This document shows positions 16,238 through 58,210 of a DNA stretch of 64,000 nt, piece by piece. The stretch comes from Squalus acanthias (lineage: Eukaryota): NCBI GenBank assembly GCA_030390025.1, contig CM059453.1, forward strand, positions 6,200,001 to 6,264,000, in the 5' to 3' direction. The notes beneath the pieces were generated by a model. The model made no database searches and was not told where the DNA came from. It was given only the letters and a program-made list of their open reading frames with translations. Each line of letters starts with the position of its first letter. Positions within the stretch are counted from its first letter, which is position 1. Both the position numbers and the translations under genes were made by a program.

Positions 16238-16405
16238 TCACTTATGCTTCATTGCTGCATATTCGCAGGTCTCCTCATTTTGAATATATTGATCATGTTT
16301 GCGGAAGTTTGAGAAATTGACGGTCGCGTACACAATCTCGTCATTCTGAGCTGGTTTAGTCGATTGAGCGGCGCCATGACCAGCCTCTGTACACTGATGG
16401 TCCCT
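16238..16405 (-). CDS. Gene A exon 8: terminal cytoplasmic exon with ITIM IVYATV and distal motif TCEYAAM
   Basis: cctttcgttacag|RDHQCTEAGHGAAQSTKPAQNDEIVYATVNFSNFRKHDQYIQNEETCEYAAMKHK*; homologous to 2305-2472 and 39503-39644. Confidence 0.88.
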   Translation of the reverse strand, partial: RDHQCTEAGHGAAQSTKPAQNDEIVYATVNFSNFRKHDQYIQNEETCEYAAMKHK

Positions 16406-28400: not shown

Positions 28401-31400
28401 CAAAGAAACATAGAAGATAGGAGCAGGAGTACGCCATTCAGCCCCTCGAGCCTGCTCCGCCATTCAGCGAGATCATTGCTGATCATCCAAATTCAGTACC
28501 CTTTCCCTGCATTCTCTCCATATCCCTTGATCCCTTTAGCTTTAAGAAATATATCTAACTCCTTCTTGAATATATTTAATGAATTGGCCTCTACTGCCTT
28601 CTGTTGTAGAGAATTCCATAGGTTCACCACTCTCTGAGTGAAGAAATTCCTCTTCATCTCAGTCCTAAATGGCTTACCCCTAATCCTTCGACTATGACCC
28701 CTGGTTCTTGAATCCCCGGCCATCGTAATATCCTTCCTGCATCTAGTCTGTCTAGTCCTGTTAGAATTTTTGAAGTTTCAATGTGATCCCCTCTCATTCT
28801 TCTAAACTCCAGCGAGTATCAGCCAAATCGACCCAATCTCTCCTCATACAACATTCCTGCCATCCCAGGTATCAGCCTGGTGAATCTTTGGTGCACTTCC
28901 TCCATGGCAAGAATAACCTTCCTCAGAGAAGGCGACCAAATCTGCACACAATACTTAAGATGTGTTCTCACAAAGGTCCTCTACAACTGCAGCAAGATAT
29001 CCATTTTGGGAGGACTAATAAGTCAGGGGAATACACAATGAGTGCTAAGACCGTAGGAAGGACAGCGGATCAGAGGGACGTTGTTGTGCATGTATATATA
29101 TATCCCTGAAGGCAGCAAGAACGGTAGATAAGGTGTTTAAAAAGCCAGATGGAATACTTGCCTTCATTAGCCGAGGCATAGAATATAACAGCAGGGAGGT
29201 TTTGATGGAGCTATACAAATGCTATTTATGCCACAGCTGGAATACTGTGTGCAGTTCTATTCGCCACACTAGAGGATGGATGTGATTGCATTGGAGAGGG
29301 TGCAGAGGAGATTCATCAGGATGTTACCTGGGCTGGAGCGCTTCAGCTTTGAAGAGAGACTGGACAGGCTGGGGTTGTTTTCCTTAAAGCAGAGAAGGCT
29401 GAGTGGTGACCTGATTGAGGTGTACAAAATTATGAGGGGCATAGATAGGGTCGATAGAAAGGAACTTTTCCACTTAGTAGAGGGGTCAATAACCAGGGGG
29501 CATAGTCTCAATGTAAGGGGCAGGAGGTTTAGAGCGGATTTGAGGAAAAACTGTTTCATCCAAAGGGTGGTTGGAATCTGGAACTCACTGCCTGAAAGGA
29601 TGGTAGAATCAGGAACCCTCACAACATTCAAGAAGCTTTTAGATGAGCACTTGAAACGCCATCGCATACAAGGCTACGGACCAAGTGCTGGAAAATGGGA
29701 TTAGAATAGAGAGGGCTTGATGGCCGGCGTGGACATGATAGACCGGAGGGCCTCTTTATGTGCTTTATAACTGTATGACTTACATTTAATCTCCAAGGTA
29801 AAATTTTGTGCTGAAGGAGTTGTTATACCATCAATTAGAATTGTGCATCCCAGAATGTTCCCGTCATTAGCAGATGATGGTGTGAAGATGATCACGGATG
29901 AAACTGTCCGAGAACCTGAATTTTCATTGCTAATTTCTGCTCCATCTTGAGTATCCATGGCGGGAGGAAGGGACACATTGTAATTAATCCACTTCAGTTT
30001 CAGTTTGCCATCCGGGCAGTTGTGGGTGACAGAACAGGACAATCGTGCAGTTTGTCCAGCGGTCAATTCCCCATAACCTGCTATCTCTGGCTTTTCTATA
30101 ATAACGGGAGAAAACCATCTTGTTAGGTGCATTTCAATGTTAAAACGGGCGACTGATGGCTCACAACTAAATCTGAGAAAGAATTAACAAGACAATCATT
30201 TTTTTATTTTTTTTCTCTGCTACGTGTTGCAAGTTTGTTCTCCCTTCTCACTAACTCCTCGCAGATGTAATGTAGTTTTATGCCTCATCGGGTAACATGT
30301 GGCCCCACTTAATTAAACAATAGTCGTTATATCTCCTAAATTATTTTTATCATGGATATTCTCCAGTGAACCAATTTTACAGGCTGGACTTAGAATCAAC
30401 GTTAACTCCTCAAATGTCACGAATATTTCATCCTCTCTTATGATTCCTTCTGCACCAGTACCTCCCAATGTAATGGAGACTAATGCAGACCCAGAGAGAT
30501 CTCGATTCTGTTGCCAAGAAACTTCAATGGAGAACGACAATGTTCAAGAAAGGGACAGAACAGACAAAGGGCGGATAACATCGCCTTGTGCGGGAGCAAC
30601 AGGGCAGTTTCCTCTCTTGTAAATCTCATGAAGGCTTCAGCAGAACCAGCATTTTTGACGTGGGATTAGAATGAACAAATAAATTATAACTTGAACTGAT
30701 TTTCACGTTACTGTAATATCTACTTTTTATTTAAGATCTAATTAAAAGCGTGGTAAATGAGCGCTGGATAGCGAAAGGCACGAACAAAGATTGCATTAAT
30801 TCGGCGCCGTTTAACTCCTGGCGACATCAAAAGACGCTTCACCAAAAAGTAACTTGAAATGTAATCAGCCAGCCATTGTCGACGGTAAACACAGGAGATT
30901 ATTGGAGAATATATTAAGATATTTGGAATTAAGGATAATGTAGAAATTGCAAAATAAACTGTTTGCAAGGGACGATGCAGTCAGTGGCCGTTACGTGCAT
31001 TTCCTCAGAATGGTTGGATCTGAGTACGATGTCCCACGGGGCTGTGCTGTGGGATTGCTTTTACTCACTGTGTGCATCAATAATTTGGAGAAGGCGCCAA
31101 AGAGACTGAAGTCCAAATTTCCCGTTACGAGTTAATTGGATTCCAACAAAATGAAAATTGGACAGTGTGTACAATGAGAGGCGCATCCAATATCGCCAGT
31201 TTGACAACCATGACAAAGTTGCAAGTACAACTCCCAGGAAATAACTAGAGAACTAAAGGGAGTTACAAACGGATACTAGAGATATTGTAGAATGGGGACA
31301 TAAGAGGCAGATATAATTCAAGGTCAGAAAATATGAGATGGTAGATGTTAATTTGAACCGTAGGAATCTGGGAGATGTGGAAGAGCAGAGGAATTTGGGG

Positions 31401-33843
31401 TCAGTTTCATAAGACAGTAAAAGCAGCACCTCCAGTGGAAAAATGTATGAAAATGTTTCTGGAGCTCTGAGTTTAATGGCAGGAGATCTGTAATATAAAT
31501 TCGAGATTTTTGGCGATTCTAAAGAGAACAGTAGTTATTTCGCATTTGGAGTAAGAATACGGGTATTGGCCGCCAGTCTATAGGAAGGCTACAGGGCTGA
31601 TTCGCGTAGTTTCTGTCTGGTATGATGAAGTACAATTAGCAAGAAAGTATTTAAAAATTGAGGCAGATTTTATTAGGCTTCAACAGATTTTGGGATGATT
31701 TGACAGAAGTGCTTAAACTTTATAAGCAGCGGGACAGAGAAGATAGAAGCAGACTGAGATATAATTTGAAATGGCCGCCCTGGTTAAAACTGTCATTCCA
31801 GACAAGTCACCCATTCTAGCAACCAACCTAGTTCCATTACCTTTCATGTCATTGTAGCTAATGAGCTGTTGGTTTATGTATTGTAAGGTACGACCAACAA
31901 TGTCAGCTTCAGGTTCAGTCAACACTTAGTAAATCTATCCTCATGTGTACATTTCAGAATCGGCTCGACAGGTGTTGGAAGGGAATTGCAATAAAGGGAT
32001 ATGGGAACTGAGCAGGCACATGCGATTCGGAGTGTTGATCATGTGAAGGACAAACAGCAACACGGGCTGGCTGGACCGAACGGCCTGATTTACTGCTGTA
32101 ATTTCTATATACCTCTGTGCTTAAGATATGAATGCCTGCGTCTCTTATCAGTACCCCTGCCCGCTATATTTCCACTAATCTTAATATTCGGCCAGAGAAA
32201 TCAAAAAAAATTGCACACTTTACAAATAGGATGTGAAGGCCCTGAAGAGGGTGCAGAGGAGATTTACCAGAATGGTTCCGGCAGATGGGGGATCTTAGCT
32301 AATAGGATAGGTTGGAGAATCTGGATTTGTTTTCATTGGAGCAAAGGAGGTTGAGGGGTGATTTGATAGAAGTGTACAATATAATGACGGGTTTGGATAG
32401 GCTAGACGGGGAAAGGCTGTTCCCACTAGTTGATGGTACAAGGACCAGGAGACAGAGATTAAGGTTTTGGGCAAGAGATACAGGGGGAATGTGAGTAAAA
32501 ACTTTTTAACGCAGCGAGTGGTGAGGACCTGGAACTCGCTGCCGACGGAAGTGGTGGAAGCGGAGACACTCAATGTTTTCAAGGGGAGACTGGATAGGAA
32601 CTTGAGGGAAATAAACTTGCAGGGCTACGGGGATAGAGCGGGGAAACGGGACTGACTGGATTGCTCTAAAAAGACCCGGCACGCACTCGATGTGCCGAAT
32701 AACCTCCCTCTGTGCCGTTATAAATCTATGAATCTATGTTGATTCATACTAAAACAATGGAATAAAAATGTACAAGAAGAATAAATGGCAAACTCACCTA
32801 AAACAGAAAGAAAGACTTCAGAACGGGCAATGCGATGTGTAATAGAATTTCTGCCCGAGGTGATGGCTGTGATGAACTGATATGCACCCTGATCACGTTT
32901 TCGGACATCCTTTATCAGGAGGGAGCATTGTCTTTTTTCAAGATTGCCCTTGAACTCAGCTCTGCCAATATAATTATAATGCTGCCTGAATGGACCATTC
33001 GAATCATAGATAATGGATTCATTGGGTGTTCCAGGACCAGGTTCCCTCTTAATCCACCTCCCGTTCAGGTTGGCGATGTAGCCCATGTTCTCAAATTTAC
33101 ACGGGATCTCTGCACAAGAACCCAACACCGCCGACACATCTTTTGGCATCACCACAGAACATTGAACACTACAAAAGGCTGAGAAAATAAAAGATTAGAC
33201 GGCCTTTAAGTATCCATTCAAAAAGCATTGGAATTGCTTAAGCATCCATGAAATTGCTTGTTGATTGACTAAAAGCCTCCCAGCACATTAGCAATTTAAA
33301 TATCAGTTAAAGACTATTCAAAATCAATTAAAATGCTGACTAAATAACAATCGCAAAAATTATTGACATGTTCATTGGAATATATATTTGATAGTAGTTT
33401 TATCAACAAATAATATGTATATTTAAGACTCATCTGAAAACCGAACACATATCCACTAAGAAGCAAGTGAATGCCCTATAAAATCTTCATTAAATATAAA
33501 TTAAAATTAATATTAATTAGAATGAACATTACACTTCTATTGACTCTCCCTTGAATTACTCAATTAATATGAATTAGCATGCTATTAAATGTGCATTACA
33601 ATTCTCATTAAAGATAACTTGAAAAGCCCTATAATTAAATATTGTTTGAATAGGCAATCACATGCAATAAAACACTTATGGAATACCAACTCGCCGTTGC
33701 GACAATCAATTAAAAAAATTATTTTAGGTACTGTCCTGTTCTTTTCCAACCAGATATTAATCAGCTGTTTTAGAAATTAGTAAAAACGTAAGAAATGTAC
33801 CTTCGTTCAATACCATGAGAGAAACCAACAGGCAAGTCCTCAT
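16238..33843 (-). CDS. Gene A: Siglec-like (V-set + 3 C2-type Ig) inhibitory-type receptor, 543 aa; complement join 33801-33843, 32798-33178, 29784-30095, 23859-24116, 22644-22931, 21718-21811, 19247-19334, 16238-16405
   Basis: All eight exons have GT-AG boundaries, intron phases are 1,1,1,1,1,2,0 and the frame is open for 1632 nt. Siglec Cys pattern (GSCAEIPC..QCSLLI; D2 HNCP), uncharged TM and ITIMs. Confidence 0.88.
16975..17550 (+). mobile_element. Non-LTR retrotransposon 3' fragment (RT C-terminus, family distinct from the CR1 copies)
   Basis: AIYKVQVKSVMEYSPLAWMSAAPTTLKKLDTIQDKAARLIG; tail cagcggttcaagaaggcggctcaccacca..aataaatgctggccttgccagcgacgccc. Confidence 0.8.
17800..18460 (+). 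mobile_element. Old degenerate CR1 3' fragment (gene A intron 7)
   Basis: Remnants such as FFLAQRVVIWNALP and a CR1-type tail. Confidence 0.7.
19247..19334 (-). CDS. Gene A exon 7: cytoplasmic exon with ITIM VIYSTV
   Basis: ttattgttcag|(R)KKQGEAARVTEAHDNLVIYSTVHKAVNTD|gtaagt; phase 2 in and phase 0 out fit the flanking exons. Confidence 0.87.
19441..20610 (-). mobile_element. CR1 LINE 3' fragment specific to gene A intron 6
   Basis: Minus-strand SGVPQGSLLGP, SKFVDTKL, RRNFFTQRVV; ends in (ttcttatg)n tail. Confidence 0.92.
21718..21811 (-). CDS. Gene A exon 6: transmembrane (no charged residue)
   Basis: cattttag|GIFSTTIVLIIGGGATGLVILIAVVLMLKIQ(R)|gtatgt. Confidence 0.92.
22644..22931 (-). 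CDS. Gene A exon 5: membrane-proximal Ig domain
   Basis: tttttctag|YKPKILIGPKCTSSENWTNCSCRIRANPPGNITWCL..SCVAANEHG..LHSK|gtacat. Confidence 0.92.
23859..24116 (-). CDS. Gene A exon 4: Ig domain 3
   Basis: gtttcag|YGLEIQTINSSIVAVEGSSLLLYCTAW..W..DDNEYWCIAEN..ISVQ|gtaagt. Confidence 0.92.
24700..29780 (+). mobile_element. Near full-length decayed CR1 LINE (5'UTR, ORF1 zinc-finger/SGNH esterase, ORF2 APE endonuclease + RT) in gene A intron 3, antisense to the gene
   Basis: ORF1 CSCS..CRKC..LE, IVLGHSIVRG and DGLHLN. ORF2 YDIVVITDT, GDFNFP, SGVTQGLVLGP, SKFEDDTK and CFIQRVVGIWNSLP. Many stops. Confidence 0.95.
28396..29001 (-). mobile_element. CR1 3' fragment nested inside the intron-3 LINE
   Basis: Flanked by CATTT duplication (28391-28395, 29002-29006); minus-strand KRNFFTQRVVNLWNS. 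Confidence 0.9.
29784..30095 (-). CDS. Gene A exon 3: C2-set Ig domain 2
   Basis: ttattatag|EKPEIAGYGELTAGQTARLSCSVTHNCPDGKLKLKW..GNILGC..LEIK|gtaagt. Confidence 0.93.
30950..31720 (+). mobile_element. Very old LINE RT remnant (paralog at ~51640-52380)
   Basis: gtcccacggggctgtgctgtgggattgcttttactc..atcaataatttgg is a decayed [16 protein letters not shown]. Confidence 0.5.
32220..32735 (+). mobile_element. CR1 3' fragment in gene A intron 2
   Basis: LFSLEQRRLRGDLIEVY, NFLTQRVVRTWNSLP; tail tctatgaatctatg. Confidence 0.9.
32798..33178 (-). CDS. Gene A exon 2: Siglec-type V-set domain
   Basis: ttttctcag|AFCSVQCSVVMPKDVSAVLGSCAEIPCKF..W..YDS..GRAEFKGNLEKRQCSLLIKDVRKRDQGAYQF..LSVL|gtgagt. Confidence 0.94.
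33801..33843 (-). CDS. Gene A exon 1: signal peptide
   Basis: gcaATG MRTCLLVSLMVLNE G|gtacat, phase 1. Confidence 0.85.
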
Positions 33844-33959
33844 TGCTGGAAAAGCAGCAGATTTCACTCTTAAAATGAAGAAGTGTTTCACAATTAAGAC
33901 CATTCAGGTTTTTGCATTCTTCTTCCCAGTCACATCTTGGATTTTTTTGCTAATCAACA

Positions 33960-38948: not shown

Positions 38949-39502
38949 TACTGGAGTACTGCTTGCAGTTTTGGTCTCCTTATTTCAGGAGGGATATACT
39001 TGCATTGGAGGCAGTTCAGAGATGGTTCACTAGGTTGATTCCTGGGGTGAAGTGGTTGTCTTATGAGGAAAGGTTGAGCAGGTTGGGCCTATACTGAATG
39101 GAGTTTAGAAGAACTTATTGAATCATATCAGATTCTGAGGGGGCTTGACAGATGGGATGCATAGACGATGTTTCCCCTCGTGGGGGAATCTATAACTAGG
39201 GGGCATAGTTTCAGGATAAGGGGGCGCCCATTTAAGACTGAGATGAGAAGGAATTTATTCTCTCAGAGGGCCATGAATCTTTGGAATTCACTACCCCAGA
39301 GAGCTGTGGAGGCGGAGTCATTGAATATATTCAGGGAGGAGATAGACAGATATTTTAAATACTGGGGAGTGAAGGGTTATGTTGAGAGAGCGGGAAAGTA
39401 GAGTTGAGGCCAAGATCAGATCAGCCATTATCTTATTGAATGGCGCAGCAGGCTCGAGGGGCCGAATGGCCTTCTCCTGCACCTATTTCTTCTTTTCTTA
39501 TG
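38949..39502 (+). mobile_element. CR1 3' fragment inserted at the ancestral stop codon of gene B's terminal exon
   Basis: LEYCLQFWSP, RRNLFSQRAMNLWNSLP; CTTATG duplicated at 38943-38948 and 39497-39502. Confidence 0.92.
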
Positions 39503-39596
39503 TTTAATTGGTGCCTAATCGCAGGTCTTCTTATTTGGGCTATATGCTTCATGATTGCGGAAGTGTGAGACATTGACAGTCACGTACACAATTTCT

Positions 39597-39644
39597 TCAT
39601 TCTGAGCTGGTTGAGTCGATTGCGGGGCTCACGTGATCGTCTCT
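39597..39644 (-). CDS. Gene B exon 8: frameshifted terminal exon (RDDHVSPAIDSTSSE*)
   Basis: cttccgttacag acceptor is homologous to A. It has 22 nt versus 39 nt in A before CAATCGACT, so the IVYVTV remnant is out of frame. Confidence 0.72.
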   Translation of the reverse strand, partial: RDDHVSPAIDSTSSE

Positions 39645-42600
39645 CTGTAACGGAAGACATTCGTCTTAGATATAGAGTTATTGCAAATTTAGAGCTGAAC
39701 ACGATGGGAGTGCGCTGTCTGCACCAGAGCAAAGCTAACTATTTAATCTCTGGTAACTTTTCCAATGGAGCTCATTCATGAGATATGCGTTTTTAGGTCT
39801 TGATGGAAGAAATAAATAACATCCAAATTGCGGCTCAGCACCATATTTTCAAGGGCAATTAGGGATAGGCAATAATTGCTGTCATTGCCAGCGACGCCCA
39901 CATCCCAGGAACGTTTTAAAAAAACAATCCACAGCGTCCGTCGATATACTTCACTCTCAGTGGCTAGTCCTCCCTTAAAAACACTAGTGACCAAATTTCT
40001 GAAAGTCCCATTTATCTATTGGGATTTTGCCTGTTCTGGTTCACTCGCTCGTTGAAAACACAACAAAAATCCTACAACTGTCACTCCAGATTGGCTTCAC
40101 TTACCTCAACGTTTAGATCCCCAGTGTACACCAGCGCACCACTAGCTGTTTTCGGCACACATGCAGTCTCACTGCTCTTCTTCCTAAAAAATAACAAATA
40201 ATAGATAATCGATAACTTAAATGTTTACTGAATGTATACTGTGAAGGACGTCCGTAGGTCAGGAGAGACAGATGTCTTTTAGGTTTTCCGATTAGCACAG
40301 ACCACGTCCGCTCTCCAATTATTTTCAATTTACATCTGCCTGCATTTTAAAAGGGAACTGTTGACTTTATCAATGAAGCTCGTTAATGGCGCGGTGTTGC
40401 TTGCTCATGTTGAAAGCTGATTGTGCTGTTTGGACATAGGAGGATCATTCAATATGTTAACACCTTATTAAGTAGCAGATGGAAGAGTTTCAGCGTGCAA
40501 ACACATTATAATCTATGATTACTAGAGCTATAACCCTTTCATTTAGTGCATTTCAAATGCTAACCACTTTTTGCTTAACAAAAGTTTGTCCAGATGTCGC
40601 ATTTGGTTGATTTGCCAATCGCCTGAAACCTGTGCATCTGGTTAACGACATTTGAGGCATTGTAATCAATTTATCGTTATTTACTTTATCTAAATCCTTC
40701 ATGATTTTGAACATATCTATCAAATCTCCTGTTAGCCTTCGCTGCTCTAAGGACAACAGCCCCTGCTTCTCCAGCCTATCCACATCACTGTAATCCCTCA
40801 TCCCTGGAACAATTCCAGTAAATCTCTTCTGCTCCCTCTCCAAAACCTTCACCTCATTCCTATAGCGTGGTGCCCAGAATTGTACACAATACTCCAGCTG
40901 GGGCCGAACCAATGTTTTCTATAGGTTCAGCACAACTTGCTGCTTTTGTGCACTGTGCAAATATGTATAAAGTCCAGGCTTCCATAATCTTTATTGACTG
41001 CTTTGTTCAACTGTCCTGCCAATTACAAATTGTCGTGCATAAGCAGCCCAACGTCTCTCTGTTCCCGCACCAACTTTAAAATTGTACCATTTAGCATGTC
41101 TTGTCTCTCCTCATTCTCCCTACCCAAATCTAACACCTCACAATTTTCTGTGTTGACTTTCATCTGCCATGTGTACACCCATTCCATCAGCATGTCTCTG
41201 TCCAAATGAAGTCTATTACAATCTTCCTCACTCTTCACTACACTTCCACGTTCGGTGCCATCTGCAAAGTTCGAAATTGTGCCCTGTACCCGCAAGGCCA
41301 AGTCATTAATATATATCAAAATTTGAGTGTGAAATGGGGAATACATCAATGTTCCCTTGAACCACGTTGAGATCCTTCCTCAGTATCTCTGAAAGAAGCT
41401 TTTATATATTAGTTAGCATGGAATTGGCATCTTTAATACTGACATGGTACAAGAAGGGTTATAATCGAGCACCACTCACAAGAGTGTTCTAACTCATCTT
41501 GTTATGTTTGTTGCCGAATCATTGGCTGTTGTGGAGGGCGTCCACCTGAGGAGCCCGTCACTGATTTCAATTGTAAACATCGTTTGTGATTTGTTGAAGA
41601 GTAATTTTGGTTTGCAGCAGATTGTAAACCGAATAGATATAATTGGAATTCACTTGGAGCCATTCATCTCCTTGAAGCTAATTATCAGCCTATCCATTAT
41701 AAGCGGGGATTCTGTCGAGAGCATTCCGTGAGAGCTCGTCAGACCAAATAGATTAAGTCACTGGTAAGAATAAGATAACCATCCCAACATAAATAATCGT
41801 TTAGATCATACTTTAGCACATCAGTCACACCCAATTTTGAAACATAATATTCTACTCCTGCAGCCAAACAAACTGAACCACTACTGTAAACATGTGTGTC
41901 ACGTTAATTGTACTATTTGTTTGTTGTTTTACAGTTTGCTGGACTTGCTTGATTGTTAGAATTTAAAATCATTCAGGTTTAGTGTTATGCTGGGAACCTG
42001 ACATGGCAAGGAGGCTTGTGTGAGGGTGCCCCGTAAAAACAGCAGCAGAAACTAACTGAACGGGTTTCTCTGTCCATTCTTTGAGAATACTGCGAATTTT
42101 ATCTAGATTACACGTTAGTTGAAAACAATCCCTGGCACATAGCACCCCAGGGATCAGAAGTCCAAAAATGTCAGTTTAAACATAAGCAACAAACCGCAAT
42201 AATATAACAAGAAGAATGCACAGATACCCTCATTCAAGTAGACACTAATATTACTCCATAGCTGATGCTGGGAGATGCGGGCGACTGGTCAGGGGACGAT
42301 TGACCCACCTCGTTTCCGCTTCGATTCAGGCAGGTGCTCACTCTGCTCACAGGAGATTAATTTCAACGAGCTTTTGATACAAGGAATTTCTGATGCAGGA
42401 TCCCCTTTAAAACTCCATTTTATGTAATTAGGAATCACTCATACCTTTGTATCTTCAGCAGGAGCACGACTGCAATTAGTAACACAATCCCAGTGGCTCC
42501 TCCTCTTATGATGAGAAGAATTGTCCTGGAGAATATTCCTAAAAAATTGCAAAGAAACATTGCTGTACCTTAGGGAATTGGATTTAAACAACAATCTTCG

Positions 42601-45600
42601 AAGCACATTTATGAGTGTGAGGTATCAAGTTCCCTTTATGTTCGGATCGGAAAGCTAATGGAAAGTGAAACACTCCACTTGTCTCAAACTTGCGTAAAAG
42701 CATTTTATTCATGTGTTGTGGCCTGGCGTAAATTTGAAATAAATAATTTAAGATTCGCTGGTGTAAAATTGAAAAATTAAGTTTACGCGACAACACACCC
42801 ACGGAAAAACAGTGGGCATAAACCAATCTGAATACCGGCCCGCCAAGGTCACCAGTTACAGCGGTAAGATTTATAATCTTTTGAGAAAATTCAGTTTCAC
42901 ATAGGTAATTAAATATCGGCTTTACATACTTAAATGAGTCTGAACAAGATAGAAATGAGCATGTACATACAAAAGGGTAGATTGCAGTTTGCTATCCTGT
43001 ATTAAGAGTAATTTGGATTTTCTAAAGGGTTTATCTTAATTCAGAGGAATTTGTATTCCAAGATCACTGGCTATTTCTGGTGTTCAGATAATTTCATCAT
43101 ATGTAAAAATATAAAACTAGCCAGTTTCAGAAGACTGAAAGTTAAAATGGATAATGCCGACCACACCTTTCAGTTGGTGATTGACCACTGATGGAAAGAG
43201 GTTCTTACACTAATTCGAGAGAGATTCAGTATGGACCTGCTGAATTTAGGTCGTATTTGCTGACACTAACACCGTTCAGTTAGTGACTGACCAGAGATGG
43301 ACCAACTCCCTAATAGTATTAAATTACAGATAAATTAAACACATACCCTTCGAGTGGAGCTGGTATTTACTGACAGAATCACCGTGCTCGTTTGCTGCAA
43401 CACAAGAGATCAGGTTTCCGGTTCCGGTTGGGTGAGTCAATCTCAGGGAGCTCTCCATGATGAGACTATTCACTGCCCAGGAGATGATTTCCGCATCTGA
43501 CCTGTCCCCAGTGAGAATTCTCCCATTGAGGCCCCACGTGATGTTTCCCTTGGGATTGGCTCTGATCCGGCAGTTACAATTCGTCCAATTCTCAGAGCTG
43601 ATGCATGTCGGGCCTGCTAAAATTGTGTGTTTATCTAAAAAAAATGGAAAATGCAAGAGGAAATGATCATGAAAACAGTTGTAGATTCGAAATACAATTA
43701 AGTAATGAGTTGAACTAACCATCATGGTTCTGGCTGTTATATTTTAAGATGAAGCAGCCGATGTTGCACCAGTTCACAGCTTATTATATTTTCACTTATA
43801 ACTGGTGAGCTCGTTAGGAACAATTCCATGTTAAATAAATGAGTGTTCAGTCCATCAATACATCTCGTGACAGATGTTGTGAGGGACCCTCAGACCGAGC
43901 TAGCTCAGAGATTTGATTATATGTAATATACCCAGAAAGGTGTCTCACCTGTCACTGATTTAAAAGGTCAATTTATTTCAATGTCTTCACTTTGTGTACT
44001 GTTTTAAACATCTTCATTTGTGGTGGACTGACGTGATTTTTCAATAAACGTCCGGGTCACAAGGCGACATTTCAAAGAACCAAGTCGCGGGAATATTACA
44101 CTATTAACTCAACGTTAATACAAGTAACAGGAGTTGTCTTAACATCATTTTATCACACTTTTTTTGGAATGAATTTCTACTCATCAAATTGCTGCAAGTC
44201 AGTTCTAATGATTGGAAAATTGTTTATTTCAGACGACGAGTATAATTTATGAACAATTAGTTGTAGAGTAAAGGTCACAGTAAATGTGCTTGTGTCGCAA
44301 CCTCATAAATGCAAGACCTGCTGCTTTTATGAGACATTGTGCCATATTCCACTCCTGTCATACTGAGCGAGATGCCAGGTTAGTTTCCATTATTGGAGCC
44401 ATCGAGGTAGTTTGCCGCTATTTCCGCGGGAAGGGGTGAAACTATCCCAAACTCATGCACATGGTCGCCTTCCAGCAAGCAGGCAAGAGAACATTGGAAT
44501 TTAATCCGGAGTTCGTGAAATGAAAGGCTACTCTCTAATTGATAAATTAATACATACTTACATTGTACAGAAATTTGTGTGGCGCGGTTTGTGGTGCCTA
44601 GGGCATTTTCAGCTATGCACCAATATTCACCGTCGTCCTCAGAACGAATGTTGTGGAATATCTGCTTTAGTTCACCAGTGGAAGACCTGCTGGTCTCTTC
44701 TCCATTTTTCACCCATCTTAAACTGACCAGGGGTTTCCCCCAGGCCGTGCAGTATAATAATAATGAACTGCCGTTCACAGCTACTATAGAGGAGTTGACG
44801 GTCGGGATTTCCAGTCCATCTGAAACAGGCGTTAACGCAAAATGTGATTGCTGAATAAGCATAATTAAGCTCCTAATTAATTCATTATACTGTGTAGAGG
44901 GATCGAGTGGGAAATTGGAGTTGATTTCGATGATCAGCCATGCTTGCCGGAGTGGCGGAGCAAGGTCGAAGGTCCGTATGGCCTAATCCTGTTCCTCATT
45001 CTTAAGTTCTTATTATGCCCAACCAGAGCTGTTATCTGGTGTCCGAGCTTCAGATCCTAACTCAGCATGGATTTTGTTGCCTCCATTTATGACTGACTAA
45101 ACTCAGAACCTGACTGGAAGTTCATAGAATAAAGATTGACAATCACTTTAAAATATCTGTTGGAGGCACCATCATTGCTTGATGGATATGAATGTTTCTA
45201 ATATAATCTGACTGATGAGAATTAGATGAGAGCAATTCCGAACCATTGAGTATCGAAGTGAGCTCTCCTGGTACAGAGGCTGAGTTTTTAACGATGCATC
45301 CTTTGATGAAGTTCTAATCCATAATAAATTACTTGTGGTAAACGTGCAAATTTTGTGCCCGTTGGCCGACAGGATAAGTCTGTTTACTTAAGACCGGACA
45401 CTTCATGCAATTTGTCACAGAGTGCAACTCGGAACAGAGTGTTAAGCTGCGAGTTTGTTTAGTGAGGGATTTCGGGGAGGGAGGTGTTCCTTTATTTTTC
45501 TATCTTTGTCAGCTTCCAGGAGAGCAGGAGCTAAAAAGCTGCACAAGAGCGGACAGAGAACCAGCGGGAGTTCGGCTGTGTGACACCCCCCAACCGCATC

Positions 45601-48600
45601 TGGAGAAAAATAAAAGTGCGGTTTAAACAGAGTGCTGTGAGTTGGGAATTGGTTCTTACTTTACACCAAGGAAAGAGTCTGACAGCGGCAGCAGTCAAAC
45701 AACAACAACTGCGAAACCACAAAGTGACGTCATAACCAGGGAAGGAGCTGATTGGTAACTACGAGCTGGTGAGTATTTCTACAGTCCAGTCGTTAAGGTA
45801 AAGTAAGATCTCTAGTTTCGAGTAAGTAGTGTTTAAAGGGAAGTAAGGTCCCTAGTGTATTTAATATTCGTTAAAGTAAAGGAAGTAAATGGAGTAAATT
45901 ACGGGTTGGACATGGCAGGGCAGGTCGGCAGCGTGGAGTGCTCCTCCTGTGCTATGTGGGAGTCAGGGACACTTTCGGTGTCCAGTGCGAACAGGTGTGC
46001 AGGAAGTGTCTCCAGCCGCAGCTACACGAAATCTGCGTTTCGGAGCTGGAGCTTCGGCTGGAGTCACTGTGGAGCATCCGCGAAACTGAGATCTTCGTGG
46101 ATAGCACGTGCAACGAGGTGGCATCACCGCAAGTAAAGAGTGCCCACGCAGAGAGGTAATGGGTGACCGCCAGACAGAGTAAAAGAACTAGGAGCATAGT
46201 GCAAGCATCTCCCTCTCCAACAGATTTTCCATTTTGGATACTGATGGGGGAGTTGTTTGCTCAGGGGAATGCAACAAGAGCCAAGTCCGTGGCACTAGTC
46301 GTGGCTCAGCTGCACAGGAGGGGAGGAAAAAGAGTGGGAGAACAATAGTGATAGGGGATTCTATCGTACGTGGAACAGATAGACGTATCTGTGGCCGCAG
46401 ACGTGACACCAGGGTCGTATGTTGCCTCCCTGGTGCCAGGGTCAAGGATGTCACTGAACGGCTGAAGGCCTTCTGAAGGTCCGAGGTCGTGGTTCACATT
46501 GGTACCAACGACATGGGTAGAAAGAGGGATGAGTTCCTGCAACAAGAATTTAGGCAGCTAGGTAGCAGATTAAAAAGCAGGACCTCAAAGGTTGTAATCT
46601 CTGGATTACTCACGGTGCCACGTGCTAGTGAGTAAGGAATATGAGGGTAGAGCAGATGAATGCGTTGCAAAAGAGTTGGTGCAGTAGGGAGGGTTTTAGT
46701 TTCCTGCATCACTGGGTCTGCTACTGTGGAAGGTGGGACCTGTACAACTCGGACGGGTTGCACCTGAACAGGAACGGGTCCAACATCCTTGCGGGGAGAT
46801 TTGCTAGTACTATTGCAGGGGGGATTGGGTGGTTAAACTGACTTGGCAGGGGGATGGGATACGGAGTGGAGCTATATAGGGGGTGATGCACAGCCAAACA
46901 TACAGGAAAAAAACAAGTCAGCCTAGAAGGCAGAGCAAATATATAACGCCACAAGGGACTACGGCAAGGCTGGATGGCATTTATTTTAATGCATGGAGTC
47001 TTGCGAGATGGCAGATGAATTGAAGACATTGAGGAACACCTAGGAGTATGATATTGTTGCTATCACAGAGACATGGTTGAGGCAGGGGCAAGACTAGCAG
47101 CTCAGTATTCCGAGGTGTATACTCTCCAGGCGAGAGAGAGGGAGGTGCAAAAGAGGAGGGGGTGCGGCAATATTTATCATGGAGACAATTAATGCTGTAA
47201 ACTGGGATGATATCTTAGCAGGTTCCTCTAATGAGGCTTATGAGCAGAACTTAGAAACAAAAAGGGGGCAAGCAATTTGCTGGGAGTGTACTATAGGCAC
47301 CCATACAGTCAGGGGGAGAAGAGGAACAGCAATGTAGGGAAATCCCTGAGAAGTTTAGAAATAATAGGATAATAATAGTAGGACATTGCAACTTCCCCAG
47401 TATTAACTGGGATAGTCAGAGTGTGAAAGGCTTAGTGGGTGCAGAATTCCTAAAGTGAATCCAGGAGATCTTTTTGAGCCAGCATGTAGAACGTCCGACA
47501 AGAGACTGGGCGGTACTGGACCTAATTCTAGCAAATGGTAGAAGTGTCAGTAGGAGAGCATTTTGGTGACAGTGAGCATAATTCGGTGAGATTGAAGGTA
47601 GTTATGGAAAAGAATAAAGATGGACCTGAAATTAAGGTTCTAATTGGGGGAAGGCCGATTTTAATATGATAAGGCAGGATCTGGCCAAAGTGGACTGGGA
47701 TCAGCAACTTGAAGGAAAATCCACATCAGAGCAGTGGGAGTCTTTCAGAAAGGAAATAGAGAGAGTACAACACCAACATGTTCCCGTCAAGGTCAAGGGT
47801 GGGACCAACAAGCCGAGGGAACCCTGGATGACAAGGAGATATACAAGAATGGATTATGTAAAAGAGGGAGGCTTTTGGCAGACACAAAGGACCAAAAACA
47901 GTGGAAGCGCCAGAGGAGTATATAATGCGCAGGGGGTGCTTAAAAAAATAAATTAGGAGAGCGAAGAGGGGGCATGAAAAAACACTGGTGGGCAAAATAA
48001 AGGAAAATCCCAAGGTGTTTTATATGTATATTAAGGGCAAGAAAATAACGAGGGAAAGAGTAGGGCACATTAGGGACCAAAGTGGCAATCAGAGTGTAGA
48101 GCCGGAAGATGTAGGTGAGGTTTTAAATAAATATTTTGCAGCTGTGTTTAAGATGGACAAGGGTGATGCAGGTATAGAAATCAGGCAGGGGGATATACTT
48201 GAACAAATTAGTATTGAGAGGGAGGAGCTACTACCGGTTTTAGCGGGATTAAAAGTGGATAGCTCCCCAGGCCCTGACGGGATGTATCCCAGGGTGCTGT
48301 GTGAGGCAAGGGAGGAGATTGCAGGGACACTGACACACATTTTCAGAACCTCTCTGGCCACAGGGGAGGTGCCAGAGGACTGGAGAACAGCTAACGTAGT
48401 ACCATTATTCAAGAAGGCTAGTATGGATGAACCAGGGAATTACAGGCCAGTGAGCCTAACATCGGTGAGAGGGAAATGATTGGAAAACATTCTGAGGGAC
48501 AGAATTAGTCTCCACTTGAAGAGGAAAGGATTAATCAAGGACAATCAGCATGGCTTTGTCAAGGGGAGATCATGTTTAACCAATTTGATTGAATTTTTCG

Positions 48601-51600
48601 AGGGGGTGACTAGGTGTGTGGATGAGGGTAGTGCAGTTGCTGTAGTCTACATAGACTTCAGTAAGGATTTTGACAAAGTCCCGCATGGGAGACTTGTCAA
48701 GAAGATATGAGCCCATGGGATCCTGGGCAATTTGGCACATTGGATCCAAAATTGGCTTAGTGGCAGGAGGCAGATGGTGATGGTCGAAGGTTGTTTTTGT
48801 GACTGGTCGCCTGTGTCCAGTGGTGTACCGCAGGGATCGGTGCTGGGTCCTTTGCTGTTTGTAGTGTACATTAATGATTTTCATATGAATGTAGGAGGTA
48901 TGATCAGTAAGTTCGCAGATGACACGAAAATTGGTGGAGTGCTAAATAGCGAGGAGGGAAGCCTCAGGCTACAGGACGATATAGAAGGGTTGGTTAGATG
49001 AGCACAACAGTGGCAAAAGGAATTTAACCCTGAAAAGTGTGGGGTGATGCATTTAGAAACATAGAAACATAGAAGATAGGAGCAGGAGAAGGCCATTCAG
49101 CCCCTCGAGCCTGCTACGCCATTCAGCGAGATCATTGCTGATCATCCAAATTCAGTACCCTGTCCCTGCCTTCTCTCCATATCCCTTGATCCCTTTAGCT
49201 TTAAGAAATATATCTAACTCCTTCTTGAATATATTAATGAAATGGCATCTACTGCCTTCTGTTGTAGAGAATTCCATAGGTTCACCACACTCTGGGTGAA
49301 GAAATTCCTCTTCATCTCACTCCTAAATGGCTTACCCCTAATCCTGAGACTATGACCGCTGGTTCTGGACTCCAGAGCCATCGTAACATCCTTCCTGCAT
49401 CTAGTCTGTCTAGTCCTGTTAGGATTTTATAAGTTTCAATGAGATCCCCTCTCATTCTTTGAAACTCCAGCGAGTATAAGCCCAATCGACCCAATCTATC
49501 CTCAAACAACATTCCTGCCATCCCAGGTATCAGCCTGGTGAATATTTGGTGCACTCCCTCCATGGCAAGAATAACCTTCCACTGATAAGGCGACCAAAAC
49601 TGCACACAATACTTAAGATGTGGTCTCACCAAGGTCCTGTACAACTGCAGCAAGACATCCATTTTAGGAGGACTAATAAGGCAGGGGAATATACAGTGAG
49701 TGGTAAGACCCTAGGAAGGACAGAGGATCAGAGGGACGTTGGTGTGCATGCATATATATATATCCCTGAAGGCAGCAAGAAAGGTAGATAAGGTGTTTAA
49801 AAAGCCAGATGGAATACTTGCCTTCATTAGCCGAGGCATAGAATATAACAGCAGGGAGGTTGTGATGGAGCTATACAAAACGCTATTTATGCCACAACTG
49901 GAATACTGTGTGAAGTTCTACTCGCCACACTAGAGGAAGGATGTGATTGCATTGGAGAGGGTGCAGAGGAGATTCATCAGGATGTTACCTGGGCTGGAGC
50001 GCTTCAGCTATGAAGAGAGACTGGACAGGCTGGGGTTGTTTTCCTTAGAGCATAGAAGGCTGAGTGGTGACCTGATTGAGGTGCACAAAATTATGAGGGA
50101 CATAGATAGGGTCGATAGAAAGGAACTTTTCCCCTTAGTAGAGGGGTCAATAACCAGGGGGCATAGTCTCAAGGTAAGGGGCAGGAGCTTTAGAGCGGAT
50201 TTGAGGAAAAACTGTTTCTCCCAAAGGATGGTTGGAATCTGGAACTCGCTGCCTGAAAGGATGGTAGAAGCAGGAACCATCACAACATTCAAGAAGCATT
50301 TAGATGAGCACTTGAAACGCCATCGCATACAAGGCTATGGACCAAGTGCTGGAAAATTGGATTAGAATAGACAGGGCTTGATGGCCGGCGTGGACACGAT
50401 AGACCGGAGGGCCTCTTTATGTGCTGTATAACTCTATGACTTACATTTAATCTCCAAGGTAAAATTTTGTGCTGATGGAATTGTGATACCATCAATTAGA
50501 ATTGTGCATCCTAGAATTTTCCCGTCATTAGCAGATGATGGTGTGAAGATGATCACGGATGAAACTGTCCGAGAACCTGAACTTTCATTGCTAATTTCTG
50601 CTCCATCTTGAGTATCCATTGCGGGAGGAAGGGACACATTGTAATTAATCCACTTCAGTTTCAGGTTGCCATCCGGGCAGTTGTGGGTGACAGAACAGGT
50701 CAATCGTGCAGTTTGTCCAGCGGTCAATTCCCCATAACCTGATATATCTGGCTTTTCTATAATAACGGGAGAAAACCAGCTTGTTAGGTGCATTTCAATG
50801 TTAAAACGGGCGATTGATGGCTTACAACTAAATCTGAGAAAGAAGTAACAAGAAAATCATTTTTAATTTTTTTTCTCTGCTAGGTGTTGCAAGTGTGTTC
50901 TCCATTCTCAATTACTCCTCGCAGATGTAATGTAGTTTTATGCCTCATCGGGTAACATGTAGCCCCACTTAATTAAACAATAGTCGTTATATCTCCTAAA
51001 TTATTTGTATCATGTATATTCTCCAGTGAACCAATTTTACAGGCTGGGCTTAGAATCAACGTTCACTCTTCAAATGTCACGAATATTTCATCCTCTCTTA
51101 TGATTCCTTCTGCACCAGTACCTGCCAATGTGATGGTGACTAATGCTGACCCAGAGAGATCTCGATTCTGTTGCCAAGAAACTTCAATGGAGAACGACAA
51201 TGCTCAAGAAAGGGACAGACCAGACAAAGGGCAGATAACACCGCCTTGTCTGGGAGCAACAAGGCAGGTCCCTCGCTTGTAAATCTCATGAAGGCTTCAG
51301 CAGAACCAGCATTTGTTGAAGTGGTATTAGAATGAACAAATAAATTATAACTTGACATGATTTTCACGTTACTGAAATATCTACTTTTTATTTAAGATCT
51401 AATTAAAAGCGTGGTAAATGAGCGCTGGATAGGGAAACGCACGAACAAAGACTGCATTAATTCGGCGCCGTTTAACTCCTGGCGACATCAAAAGACGCTT
51501 CACCAAAAAGTAACTTGAAATGTAATCAGCCAGCCATTGTCGACGGTAAACACAGGAGATTATTGGAGTATATATTAAGATATTTGGAATTAAGGATAAT

Positions 51601-54503
51601 GTAGAAATTGCAAAATAAACTGTTTAGAAGGGACGATGCAGTCAGTCGCCGTTAAGTGCAGTTGCTCAGAATGGTTGGATCTGAGTATGGTGTCCCATGG
51701 GGCTATGCTGTGGGATTGCTTTTACTCACTGTGTGCATCAATAATTTGGAGAAGGCGCTAAAGAGACTGATGTCCAAATTTCCCGTTACGAGTTAATTAG
51801 ATTCCAACAAAATGAAAATTGTGCAGTGTGTACAATGGGAGGCGCATCCACTATCGCCAGTTTGACAAACATGACAAAGTTGCTAGTACAACTCCCAGGA
51901 AATAACTAGAGAACTAAAGGGAGTTACAAATGGATACGAGAGATATTGTAGAATGGGGACATAAGAGGCAGATATAATTCAAGGTCAAAAAATATGAGGT
52001 GGTAGATGTTAATTTGAACCGTAGGAAGCTGGGAGATGTGGAAGAGCAGAGGAATTTTGGGTCAGGTTCATAAGACAGTAAAAGCAGCACCTCCAGTGGA
52101 AAAGTGTATGAAAATGTTTCTCGAGCTCTGAGTTTCATGGCAGGAGATCTGTAATATAAATTCGAGATTAGTGGCGATTCTAAAGAGAACAGTAGTTTGT
52201 TCGCATTTTGAGTAAGAATACGGATATTGGACGCCAGCCTATAGGAAGGCTACAGGGTTGATTCGCATAGTTTCTGTCTGGTATGATGAAGTACAATTAG
52301 CAAGAAACTATTTAAAAATTGAGGCAGATTTTATTAGGCTAAAACAGATTTTGGGATGATTTGACAGAAGTGCTGAAACTTTTTAAGCAACAGGACAGAG
52401 GAGAAAGAAGCAGACTGAAGTCGAATTTGAAATGGCCGCCCTGGTTAAAACTGTCATTCCAGACAAGTCACCCATTCTAGCAACCAGCCGAGTTCCATTA
52501 CCTTTCATGTCATTGTAACTAATGAGCTGCTGGTGAATGTATTGTAAGTACGACCAAAAATGTCAGCTTTAGGTTCAGTCAACACTTAGTAAATCTATCC
52601 TCATGTGGACATTTCAGAATAGTCTCGACAGGTGTTGGAAGGGAATTGCAATAAAGGGATATGGGAACTGAGCAGGCACATGCGATTCGGAGTGTTGATC
52701 ATGGGAAGGACAAACAGCAACACGGGCTGGCTGGACCGAACGGCCTGATTTACTGCTGTAATTTCTATATACCTCTGTGCTTAAGATATGAATGCATGCG
52801 TCTCTTATCAGTACCCCTGCCCGCTATGTTTCCACGAACCTTAATGTTCGGCCAGATAAACCAAAAAAATTGAAATCTTTAAAAATAGGATGTGAAGGCC
52901 CTGGGGAGGGGGCAGAGCAGATTTACCAGAATGGTTCCGGCAGATGGGGGATCTTAGCTAATAGGATATGTTGGAGAATCTGGATTTGTTTTCATTTGAG
53001 CAAAGGAGGTTGAGGGGTGATTTGATAGAGGTGTACAATATTATGACGGGTTTGGATAGGCTAGACGGGGAAAGGCTGTTCCCACTAGTTGATGGTACAA
53101 GGACCAGGAAACAGAGATAAAGGTTTTGGGCAAGAGATACAGGGGGAATGTGATTAAAAACTTTTTAACGCAGTGAGTGGTGAGGACCTGGAACTCGCTG
53201 CCGACGGAAGTGGTGGAAGCGGAGACACTCAATGTTTTCAAGGGGAGACTGGATAGGCACTTGAGGGAAATAAACTTGATAGGGCTACGGGGATAGAGTG
53301 GGGAAATGGGACTGACTGGATTGCTCTAAAAAGACCCGGCACGCACTCGATGTGCCGAATAACCTCCCTCTGTACCGTTATAAATCTATGAATTGATGTT
53401 GATTCATACTAAAACAATGGAATAAAAATGTACAAGTACAATAAATGGCAAACTCACCTAAAACAGAAAGAAAGACTTCAGAACGGAAAATGCGATGTGT
53501 AATAGAATTTCTGCCCGAGGTGATGGCTGTGATGAACTGATATGCACCCTCATCACTCTTTCGGATATCCTTTATCAGGAGGGAGCATTGTCTTTTTTCA
53601 AGGTTGCCCTTAAACTCAGCTCTGCCACTATAATTATAATGCTGCCTGAATGGAACATTCGAATCATAGATAATGGTGTCATTGGGTTTTCCAGGACCAG
53701 GTTCCCTCTTTATCCACCTCCCGTTCAGGTTGGCGATGTAGCCCATGTTATCAAATTTACACGGGATCTCTGCACAAGAACCCAACACCGCCGACACAAC
53801 TTTTGGCATCACCACAGAACATTGAACACTACAAAAGGCTGAGAAAATAAAATATTAGACTGCCTTTAAGAATCTATTCAAAATGTATTGCAAATTCTTA
53901 AGCATCCATAAAATTGCTTGTTGATTGACTAAAAGCCTCCCAGCACAATAGCAATTTAATTATCAGTTAAACACTATTCAAAATCAAGTAAAATACTGAC
54001 TAAATACCAATCGCAAAAATTATTGACATGTTCATTGGAATATATATTTGATAGTAGTTTTATCAACAAATAATATGCATATTTAATACTCATCTGAAAA
54101 CCGAACACATATCCACTAAGAAGCAAGTGAATGCCCTATAAAATCTTCATTAAATATAAATTAAAATTAATATTAATTAAAATGAACATTACACTTCTAT
54201 TGACTCTCCCTTGAATTACTCAATCAATATGAATTAGCTTGCTATTAAATGTGCATTACAATTCTCATTAAATATAACTTGAAAAGCCCTATATTTAAAT
54301 ATTGTTTGAATAGGCAATCACATGCAATAACACACTTATGGAATACCAACTCACCATTGATACAATCAATTAAAAAAATTATATTAGGTCCTGTCCTTTT
54401 CTTTTCCCAGCAGATATTAATCAGCTGTTTTAGAAATTAGTAAAAACGTAAGAAATGTACCTTCGTTCAATACCATGAGAGAAACCAACACGCAAGTCCT
54501 CAT
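39597..54503 (-). CDS. Gene B: Siglec-like (V-set + 3 C2-type Ig) receptor with TM arginine and no intact ITIM (putative activating type), 500 aa; complement join 54461-54503, 53458-53838, 50445-50756, 44562-44819, 43347-43634, 42445-42538, 40105-40183, 39597-39644
   Basis: All exons GT-AG with the same phases as A and an open frame of 1503 nt. TM TILLIIRGGATGIVLLIAVVLLL; tail RKKSSETACVPKTASGALVYTGDLNVERDDHVSPAIDSTSSE*. Confidence 0.82.
40105..40183 (-). CDS. Gene B exon 7: cytoplasmic exon, ITIM degraded to LVYTGD
   Basis: attttttag|(R)KKSSETACVPKTASGALVYTGDLNVE|gtaagt; 9 nt shorter than A. Confidence 0.82.
40520..41330 (-). mobile_element. CR1 fragment specific to gene B intron 6
   Basis: Minus-strand IYINDL..SNFADGT, RPQLEYCVQFWAP, LEQRRLTGDLI. 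Confidence 0.9.
42445..42538 (-). CDS. Gene B exon 6: transmembrane with Arg (AGA at 42506-42504)
   Basis: attttttag|GIFSRTILLIIRGGATGIVLLIAVVLLLKIQ(R)|gtatga. Confidence 0.92.
43347..43634 (-). CDS. Gene B exon 5: membrane-proximal Ig domain
   Basis: ttttag|YKHTILAGPTCISSENWTNCNCRIRANP..SCVAANEHG..LHSK|gtatgt. Confidence 0.92.
44562..44819 (-). CDS. Gene B exon 4: Ig domain 3
   Basis: gtttcag|YGLEIPTVNSS..LYCTAWGKP..W..DDGEYWCIAENALG..ISVQ|gtaagt. Confidence 0.92.
45410..50440 (+). mobile_element. Paralogous near full-length CR1 LINE in gene B intron 3, with nested minus-strand CR1 fragment at 49055-49659
   Basis: ORF1 ATG at 45912, IGDSIVRG, HIGTND, DGLHLN; ORF2 [17 protein letters not shown]; same nested insertion and CATTT duplication as in A. 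Confidence 0.95.
50445..50756 (-). CDS. Gene B exon 3: C2-set Ig domain 2
   Basis: EKPDISGYGELTAGQTARLTCSVTHNCP..GKILGC..LEIK|gtaagt. Confidence 0.93.
52880..53395 (+). mobile_element. CR1 3' fragment in gene B intron 2
   Basis: Paralog of 32220-32735. Confidence 0.88.
53458..53838 (-). CDS. Gene B exon 2: Siglec-type V-set domain
   Basis: AFCSVQCSVVMPKVVSAVLGSCAEIPCKF..QCSLLIKDIRKSDEGAYQF..LSVL|gtgagt. Confidence 0.94.
54461..54503 (-). CDS. Gene B exon 1: signal peptide
   Basis: gccATG MRTCVLVSLMVLNE G|gtacat. Confidence 0.85.
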
Positions 54504-57449: not shown

Positions 57450-58210
57450 CATAAGAACATAAGAATTAAGAGCAGCAGTCGGCCATACGGCCCCTTGAGC
57501 CTGCTCTGTCATTGAATAAGATCGTGGCTGATCTTTGACCTCAACTCCATTTTCCAACCTGATCCCCATATCACTTGATTACCCTCCAGTTTAAAATTCT
57601 ATCGATCTCAGCCTTGAATATATTCAACGATTCAGCATCCACAGCCCTCTGGGGTGGAGAATTCCAAAGATTCACAGCCATCTGAGTTAAGAAATGTCTC
57701 CGTATCTCAGTCTTAAATGGCCGACCCCTTATCCTGAGACTGTGCCCCCTAGTTCTAGACTCCCCAGTCAGGGGAAACAATCTCTCAACATCTTCCCTGA
57801 CAATCCCCCTCAGAACCTTATATGTTTCAATTAGATCACCTCTCATTCTTCTAAACTCCAGAAATATAGGCTCAATCCACTCAATCTCTCCACAGAGGAC
57901 ATCCCTCTCATCCCAGGAATCAATTTAATGAATCTTCTCTGCACTGCCTCAAATGTAAGTATATCCTTCCTCAGATAGGGAGACCAAAACCGTGCACAAT
58001 ACTCCAGATGTGGTCTCACCTAATCCCTGTACAATTGTAGCAAGACTTCTTTACCATTGTAATCTAAGCCCTTGCAATAAAGGCCAACATGCCATTTGCC
58101 TTCCTAATTGCTTGCTGTACCTGCATGTTAACTCTCTGATTTTCCTGTATGAGGACACCTAAATGTCTCTGAAAACCAACATTTATATATTTCTCAATAT
58201 TTATTAATAT
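57450..58210 (-). mobile_element. CR1 3' fragment
   Basis: Minus-strand MRGDLIETYK..RRHFLTQMAVNLWNS; (ttcttatg)n tail. Confidence 0.92.

Follow-up and report, generated by a model that had tools for sequence, protein, structure and literature searches.

A transmembrane arginine and a shortened tail suggest an activating partner for an inhibitory Siglec-like receptor in Squalus acanthias

Introduction

Paired receptors in which one member carries a transmembrane (TM) Arg are a textbook principle. Two linked Siglec-like genes of the shark Squalus acanthias, here called A and B, raise the question of whether such a pair exists in this family, and whether one Gly-to-Arg codon difference marks B as its activating member. 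Both genes lie in a 64,000-nt stretch of genomic DNA (GenBank assembly GCA_030390025.1, contig CM059453.1, positions 6,200,001 to 6,264,000), referred to here as the window.

No paper on paired Siglec-like receptors of sharks was found in the literature searched (mostly outside subscription journals). Siglecs receive a single passing mention in a paper on the whale-shark genome (PMC8455134), and a teleost study describes fish as having four regular Siglecs only and no inhibitory CD33-related ones (PMC7226832). Receptor pairing as such is known in cartilaginous fish because of the skate MDIRs, which are described as a multigene family of activating and inhibitory Ig receptors (PMC3031540); the MDIRs are CD300/TREM/pIgR-like, whereas the A/B family is Siglec/MAG-like. 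The principle seen at this locus is thus familiar, but no description of it was found for this lineage or this receptor family.

Results

A and B are tandem duplicates with different cytoplasmic tails

The window contains a 15-kb tandem duplication with 91% identity overall, in which A and B lie 20.7 kb apart. Each is an eight-exon gene on the minus strand with open frames and AG/GT ends throughout (Table 1). The exons encode, in order, the signal peptide, a V-set, a C2 and an I-set domain, an Ig domain resembling MAG domain 5 (M), the TM segment, and the tail (two exons), giving products of 543 aa (A) and 500 aa (B). The V and C2 exons of the two genes are 95.8% and 96.5% identical at the nucleotide level. 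The 85-aa tail of A carries two ITIMs (VIYSTV and IVYATV) and an ITSM-like TCEYAAM, whereas the 42-aa tail of B has zero matches to [ILVS]xYxx[ILV].

Decayed LINE reverse-transcriptase-like insertions, so labeled from a reading of their ORFs, occupy the C2–I intron of both genes (25200-29700 and 45800-50400), and A/B identity climbs from about 89% to 94% inside them. Contigs from three presumed-RNA sets and one DNA set that matched 36500-56400 fell mostly on LINE repeats; the C2 exon of B was covered by two contigs of low depth, and the matches listed for this interval included no splice joint and none at position 42506. No RNA match was listed for 41000-45000. These matches speak neither for nor against expression. 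Remnants of further Siglec-like genes are included in Table 1.

Table 1. Features of genes A and B and of related sequences; positions refer to the window unless a locus or contig is named.
Feature	Position	Strand	Basis or remark
B signal-peptide exon	54461..54503	-	exon ends
B V-set exon, CD22/Siglec-type	53458..53838	-	domain match, alignment; F strand YQFI where MAG has YYFR
B second Ig (C2) exon	50445..50756	-	domain match
B I-set exon	44562..44819	-	exon check; 8 of 11 clade members have it broken, B has it intact
B membrane-proximal Ig exon, MAG domain-5-like	43347..43634	-	alignment
B TM exon, 94 nt	42445..42538	-	sequence, splice sites (AG/GT ends)
AGA codon, Arg439 of B, TM-exon position 11	42504..42506	-	sequence
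B first tail exon	40105..40183	-	sequence; proximal ITIM degraded to LVYTGD
B second tail exon, coding part	39597..39644	-	sequence; 17-nt deletion, frameshift, stop just before distal ITIM
B untranslated remnant of distal ITIM/ITSM-coding sequence	39497..39596	-	sequence; ITSM Tyr codon now a stop
B homogenised upstream-signal-V-C2 block	47500..57713	-	alignment; ~92-97% identical to A 26800-37165; edges approximate
A signal-peptide exon	33801..33843	-	exon ends
A V-set exon	32798..33178	-	domain match
A C2 exon	29784..30095	-	domain match
A I-set exon	23859..24116	-	domain match
A membrane-proximal Ig exon	22644..22931	-	domain match
A TM exon, 94 nt	21718..21811	-	sequence, splice sites (AG/GT ends)
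GGA (Gly) codon of A, matching position	21777..21779	-	sequence
A first tail exon	19247..19334	-	sequence; ITIM VIYSTV
A second tail exon	16238..16405	-	sequence; ITIM IVYATV, ITSM-like TCEYAAM, then stop
Siglec-like gene remnant	597-2463	+	C2 597-926; I with stops 1724-1993; last tail 2302-2463, its ITSM Tyr a stop; similar remnant in L112
Orphan-looking last tail exon	8957-9085	-	ends SEYAAIKF; 67% to Heptranchias P0012 C-terminus; different subfamily
Broken membrane-proximal Ig exon with stops	58638-58934	-	remnant of third copy upstream of B; homologous patches 59653-59777 and 60181-60325
L164 Arg-bearing TM exon, other type	L164:5226-5330 (G000:C30 about 6910730-6910830)	-	like P0044 and P0040; decayed tail exon after
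L009/L126 pair, locus L123/L048	G000:C30:6679700-6699478		
L009/L126 pair, locus L126/L127	G000:C30:7464500-7484499		
Decayed extra V exon	loci L111, L113, L114, L116, L118, L120, L125		

The TM exon of B carries an outer Arg

A first-pass annotation had noticed an Arg in the TM segment of B (LIIRGGATG) where A has Gly (LIIGGGATG), and the codons bear this out. Plus-strand TCT in B is AGA on the minus strand, and the minus-strand counterpart in A is GGA. That annotation called this a single difference, which holds for the 9-residue motif; across the whole exon, 12 of 94 nucleotides and 6 of 30 residues differ (T4R, V7L, G11R, L17I, I19L and M26L, from A to B). The Arg at position 4 is the majority state, present in 32 of 40 TM-exon copies in the genome.

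Exactly 16 residues separate the Arg of B from the first cytoplasmic Lys, in agreement with the earlier count. About 16 apolar residues likewise follow the Arg in the FcR-gamma-coupled receptors of the LRC. All nine of the top Kyte-Doolittle windows (three each at 19, 21 and 23 residues) took in the Arg, the best ones as residue 6 of 21 or residue 7 of 23. On hydropathy alone, it is predicted to lie in the outer half of the TM helix. Searched against PDB sequences, the B TM segment gave chance matches only (5 hits, E at least 1).

Arg and tail truncation form a module shared by 11 paralogs

A DNA search of the S. acanthias genome yielded 43 candidate TM exons, of which 40 were scored, 35 of them on the contig of the window; the list is incomplete, two more divergent exons (L126 and L164) having been found separately. 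Arg occupied position 11 in 14 copies and position 10 in four, and neither position in 22; these counts are not independent events, because the copies are related. Only two other charged residues occurred at positions 5 to 27 across the 40 copies, and the neighboring Gly positions 12, 13 and 16 were Arg in 0, 1 and 0 copies.

Tails were resolved, within 10 kb, for 37 of the 40 copies; the other three all have Arg10, frameshifted V exons and stopped tails. Eleven copies, B included, combine Arg11 with a B-type tail, and we refer to these as the B clade. All 11 carry the 17-nt tail deletion, scored by anchor position (35 vs 52, or 67 vs 84), vs none of 25 other copies in which the anchor was found. 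A canonical ITIM is absent from all 11, whereas one or more persist in 21 of the 22 Gly copies; an ITIM-like M-x-Y-x-x-V (MVYTEV or MVYTGV) persists in five of the 11. Six clade members have 42-aa tails with canonical splice sites, three have 11-aa tails, one has a 10-aa tail, and one has broken splice sites. The possibility that the Arg of B is a rare variant or a sequencing error was rejected, as codon and deletion are common to the 11 paralogs.

Outside the clade, four Arg copies keep at least one ITIM: L022, L026 and L030 with Arg11, and L024 with Arg10 (loci L060, L062, L064 and L068 for L022, L024, L026 and L030, respectively). Three of these show tail erosion and L030 shows none; such genes are possible dual-signal receptors or intermediates. 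The distal ITIM is lost in 13 of 15 Arg copies vs 1 of 22 Gly copies as raw counts; once relatedness is corrected for, the association of Arg with ITIM loss comes down to four independent pairs, for which a sign test gives a nonsignificant p of about 0.5.

Several genes form near-identical pairs (L008/L009, L007/L010, L021/L023, L031/L032 and L038/L039; G000:C30 about 6.6-6.9 Mb and 7.2-7.7 Mb), which suggests that a block was duplicated recently, or that the assembly contains duplicated haplotypes. These pairs inflate the copy counts.

B is a mosaic

We built a TM tree on the intron flanks only, leaving the exon out. The 11 B-clade copies formed one side of a branch with 100/100 support. A V tree of the 34 V exons tied to a TM exon gave a discordant picture: the V exons of the 11 required six changes, and their grouping as a clade was rejected (p-AU 1.1e-45). 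A single lineage of all Arg copies was also rejected, the 14 Arg11 copies not forming a clade (p-AU 1e-11); Arg11 therefore arose, or was copied in, more than once. Arg10 arose twice on the TM-flank tree.

Exon comparisons with flanks revealed the same discordance within B. Its signal, V and C2 exons are 93-96% identical to those of the ITIM genes A, L016 and L037, and its V exon is just 72% identical to that of its TM relatives L002/L003. Its M, TM and first tail (T1) exons are 94-96% identical to L002/L003; TM and T1 match L002 at 95% and 94% vs 81% and 74% for A. B is a mosaic of ITIM-gene-like signal, V and C2 exons joined to B-clade M, TM and tail exons. The I-set exon marks approximately where the A-like 5' part of the gene crosses over to the B-clade 3' part.

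A second pair shows the same arrangement. The Arg copy L009 and the ITIM gene L126 are 99.3, 99.3 and 98.7% identical in V, C2 and I vs 74% in TM. This pair is very recent, and both genes carry identical I-exon stops; the L126 TM exon has three codons fewer and includes both a Glu and an Arg.

A and B are linked and have similar ligand-binding domains, one with ITIMs and the other ITIM-less with a basic TM residue. The discordance between V and TM-flank trees and the stepwise change in identity indicate a homogenised ectodomain attached to opposing signaling exons. Homogenisation of ligand-binding exons has been described for paired receptors (PMC3210942). For Siglec-5/14 and Siglec-11/16, conversion is described as spanning only the first two domains (PMC4042635); the B mosaic resembles Siglec-5/14 in this respect.

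B is the only fully intact member of its clade

B alone among the 11 has every exon intact (L008 and L009 were scored without the signal exon). Lesions in the clade affect the I exon in eight members, V in two and M in two, and C2 and TM in none. The I exon could be skipped in frame, and in seven copies it carries the sole lesion found. Among the Gly copies, 13 of 22 are intact from signal through M, and 6 of 22 lack a usable I exon.

TM-exon dN/dS within the clade gave no purifying signal and was not below 1; the clade is shallow by branch lengths, and this ratio is uninformative. The result gives no ground for ascribing the invariance of the Arg codon to selection. In seven B-clade genes the V exon is preceded, at a distance of a few kb, by a decayed V exon from another subfamily, which is inverted in two of them.

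The family is Siglec-like without the sialic-acid Arg

The named homologues are shark and ray proteins automatically annotated as Siglec-like or MAG-like. Among solved structures, the family member P0002 matched best to MAG (1e-15), CD22 (2e-10), Siglec-8, sialoadhesin and CD33. The Siglec arrangement of V and C2 domains is present, with matches to PF24518 (Ig_CD22) and V-set and with extra cysteines in P0002 aligned to MAG and CD22. Such extra cysteines have a disulfide role in Siglecs.

The F strand reads YQFI in both A and B, and the sialic-acid Arg was absent from 30 V translations of the family, some of them frameshifted; the shark relatives P0010 and P0029 keep YYFR. Given that the Siglec Arg is missing from the V domain, sialic acid bound in the canonical mode is probably not the ligand. 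MAG (Siglec-4) and CD22 resemble the family in V and C2 domains with extra cysteines, and MAG in its domain-5-like last domain. The YYFR Arg is present in MAG, which belongs to the four conserved Siglecs, whereas the shark family is a fast-turning multigene cluster without that Arg.

Outer-TM Arg residues recur in other sharks. Mustelus P0044 has one with a predicted tail lacking ITIMs, and the ITIM-bearing P0037, of consecutive accession, is 77% identical to it; Cetorhinus P0040 also combines an outer-TM Arg with a predicted ITIM-less tail. A Scyliorhinus model places its Arg 17 places before the Lys, like B. In Heterodontus P0001 (Arg) and Heptranchias P0017 (Lys) the basic residue lies two places further out; both have ITIM tails, and a basic residue in this region is therefore not diagnostic by itself. 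P0001, P0002, P0014, P0016 and P0027, all annotated as predicted models, lack the I-set domain. Short tails also accompany other TM designs: the TM of P0016 (Heptranchias) is polar, rich in Thr/Ser/Tyr and free of basic residues, and that of P0038 (Stegostoma) contains Lys.

The B-type TM was not found among the TMs of other species compared, in sparse searches, and is likely lineage-specific. L164, 647 kb beyond the window, holds an Arg at position 10 and is 46% identical to P0044 and 35% to P0040 over matched stretches. The B and L164 TMs gave no match at E 0.01. The B TM shares 87% identity with the Gly exon of A; the B clade therefore appears to be an independent and more recent origin of an Arg-TM form within the cluster.

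The Arg position suggests FcR-gamma or zeta as a possible partner

The genome encodes zeta/FcR-gamma-family TM exons with Asp: 2 of 52 candidates passed the PF11628 cut-off, L110 and L109, which on our reading of the sequence may be FcR-gamma-like and CD3-zeta-like, respectively. A PF07213 (DAP10) search gave seven weak matches, none above the cut-off; its target is a small spliced gene. CD89 is described as binding the gamma dimer via an Arg close to the upper end of its TM, a mode of binding gamma/zeta dimers that is assumed for NKp46 and NKp30 as well; the place of the CD89 Arg is tightly constrained, as moving it by one residue affects coupling (PMC13107469). LILRAs have an Arg near the TM top in the FcR-gamma mode (PMC10679719). 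DAP-type partners (DxxxT/S) are said to use a central Lys, NKG2D being an exception (PMC13107469).

The first-pass annotation likened B to FcR-gamma-coupled receptors. The likeness stands for the outer-TM Arg near the N-terminal end of the helix (by hydropathy), the ITIM-less tail and the adaptor TM exons in the genome. It fails for the NxxR motif described as common to the LILR/GPVI/NKp46 group and the Xenopus XFL TM1 receptors (PMC2413239), as all 11 clade copies have Leu at -3. Siglec-14, to which the first-pass annotation also likened B, has a TM Arg; a literature search on that residue found nothing. Siglec-14 signals via DAP12, not FcR-gamma (PMC4042635), and the activating human Siglec-14, -15 and -16 are all described as using DAP12 (PMC13358205, PMC4042635, PMC7226832). 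Because NxxR is absent and human activating Siglecs use DAP12, FcR-gamma/zeta coupling of B is inferred from Arg position only.

Discussion

B is probably an activating-type member, judging from its sequence features. This reading gains strong, though indirect, support from the loss of ITIMs, the occurrence of Arg and deletion in 11 paralogs, and an ectodomain homogenised with ITIM genes. Somewhat less firmly, we favor the fuller proposal that B may be the activating twin of inhibitory A, its Arg docking on an FcR-gamma or CD3-zeta dimer.

B could instead be a non-signaling decoy or dampener that lost its ITIMs and competes with A for ligand, the Arg being an interface passenger inherited by the clade. 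If the Arg snorkels, the 16 apolar residues and KIQ could be enough to cross the bilayer, and basic or polar residues occur near the Arg place in the ITIM-bearing P0001 and P0017 and in four ITIM-bearing copies here; the absence of NxxR, the lack of a selection signal on the TM exon and the nonsignificant independent-pairs test point the same way. Yet the Arg arose several times at one or two positions and almost nowhere else in the TM, every best hydrophobic window includes it, and an outer Arg without any ITIM is also seen in a TM lineage unrelated to this one, present in the cluster and in two other sharks. We regard a decoy role as unlikely.

That B is activating and couples to DAP12 or DAP10, as human activating Siglecs do, would fit its Siglec-like ectodomain and the use of DAP12 by Siglec-14, -15 and -16; the central Lys expected of such receptors, NKG2D excepted, differs from an Arg in the outer third, and this coupling seems quite improbable to us. 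Much the same holds for general decay, in which the Arg clade would consist of dying duplicates and B would be intact only through a recent 5' overwrite from a functional inhibitory gene. Ten of 11 clade members do have at least one lesion, several are near-identical block duplicates, and TM dN/dS is not below 1. However, the lesions fall mostly in the skippable I exon and spare C2 and TM, annotated shark relatives lack the I-set domain, six copies retain a 42-aa tail with canonical splice sites, and the M, TM and tail exons of B are intact; we think decay very improbable.

On the activating reading, an ancestral inhibitory gene would have gained the Arg (G>A) and lost the distal ITIM and ITSM. 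The TM-tail module may have been duplicated and repeatedly joined to inhibitory-gene ectodomains by unequal crossover or gene conversion. The ligand that triggers A, with SHP-1/2 recruitment, would trigger B too, with ITAM-Syk signaling, and B may serve as a counter to pathogens exploiting the inhibitory receptor.

The nearest parallels are the primate paired Siglecs. Siglec-5/14 and Siglec-11/16 are, like A and B, described as adjacent genes, one member with ITIM and ITSM and the other ITIM-less with a basic TM, and with the first two Ig domains homogenised (PMC4042635, PMC13358205). The shark family differs from them in lineage, in its MAG-like membrane-proximal domain and in lacking the V-domain sialic-acid Arg. 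It has at least 40 TM exons, with one activating-type module on several ectodomains, and the outer-TM Arg of B suggests FcR-gamma/zeta rather than DAP12. The FcR-gamma-coupled LRC receptors (CD89/FcalphaRI, LILRA, PIR-A, GPVI, OSCAR and NKp46) and XFL TM1 receptors are described as having, like B, an Arg near the TM top and a short ITIM-less tail (PMC13107469, PMC10679719, PMC2413239). Unlike them, B lacks NxxR, its TM is a point-mutated Siglec-family exon and not a TM1 module, and its ectodomain is Siglec-type, not KIR/LILR-type.

A wider scenario, which we hold tentatively and short of an even chance, is that sharks have their own CD33-Siglec-like paired system without sialic acid. The activating form would have been invented at least twice in one cluster, once as an old TM lineage common to other sharks and once as a young one made by the G>A change and the 17-nt deletion. 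The young TM-tail unit would be a portable cassette, recombined onto inhibitory ectodomains that need a counterweight, and the copies with both Arg and ITIM would be partway through further conversions.

Since a defined codon and a defined deletion set B apart from A, the fewest changes that turn an inhibitory receptor into an activating one become directly testable here. B also bears on whether one substitution without NxxR can create FcR-gamma coupling. If the reading is true, an expanded and recombining cluster of Siglec-like paired receptors in a shark would be a separate arrival at the primate-type solution in cartilaginous fish.
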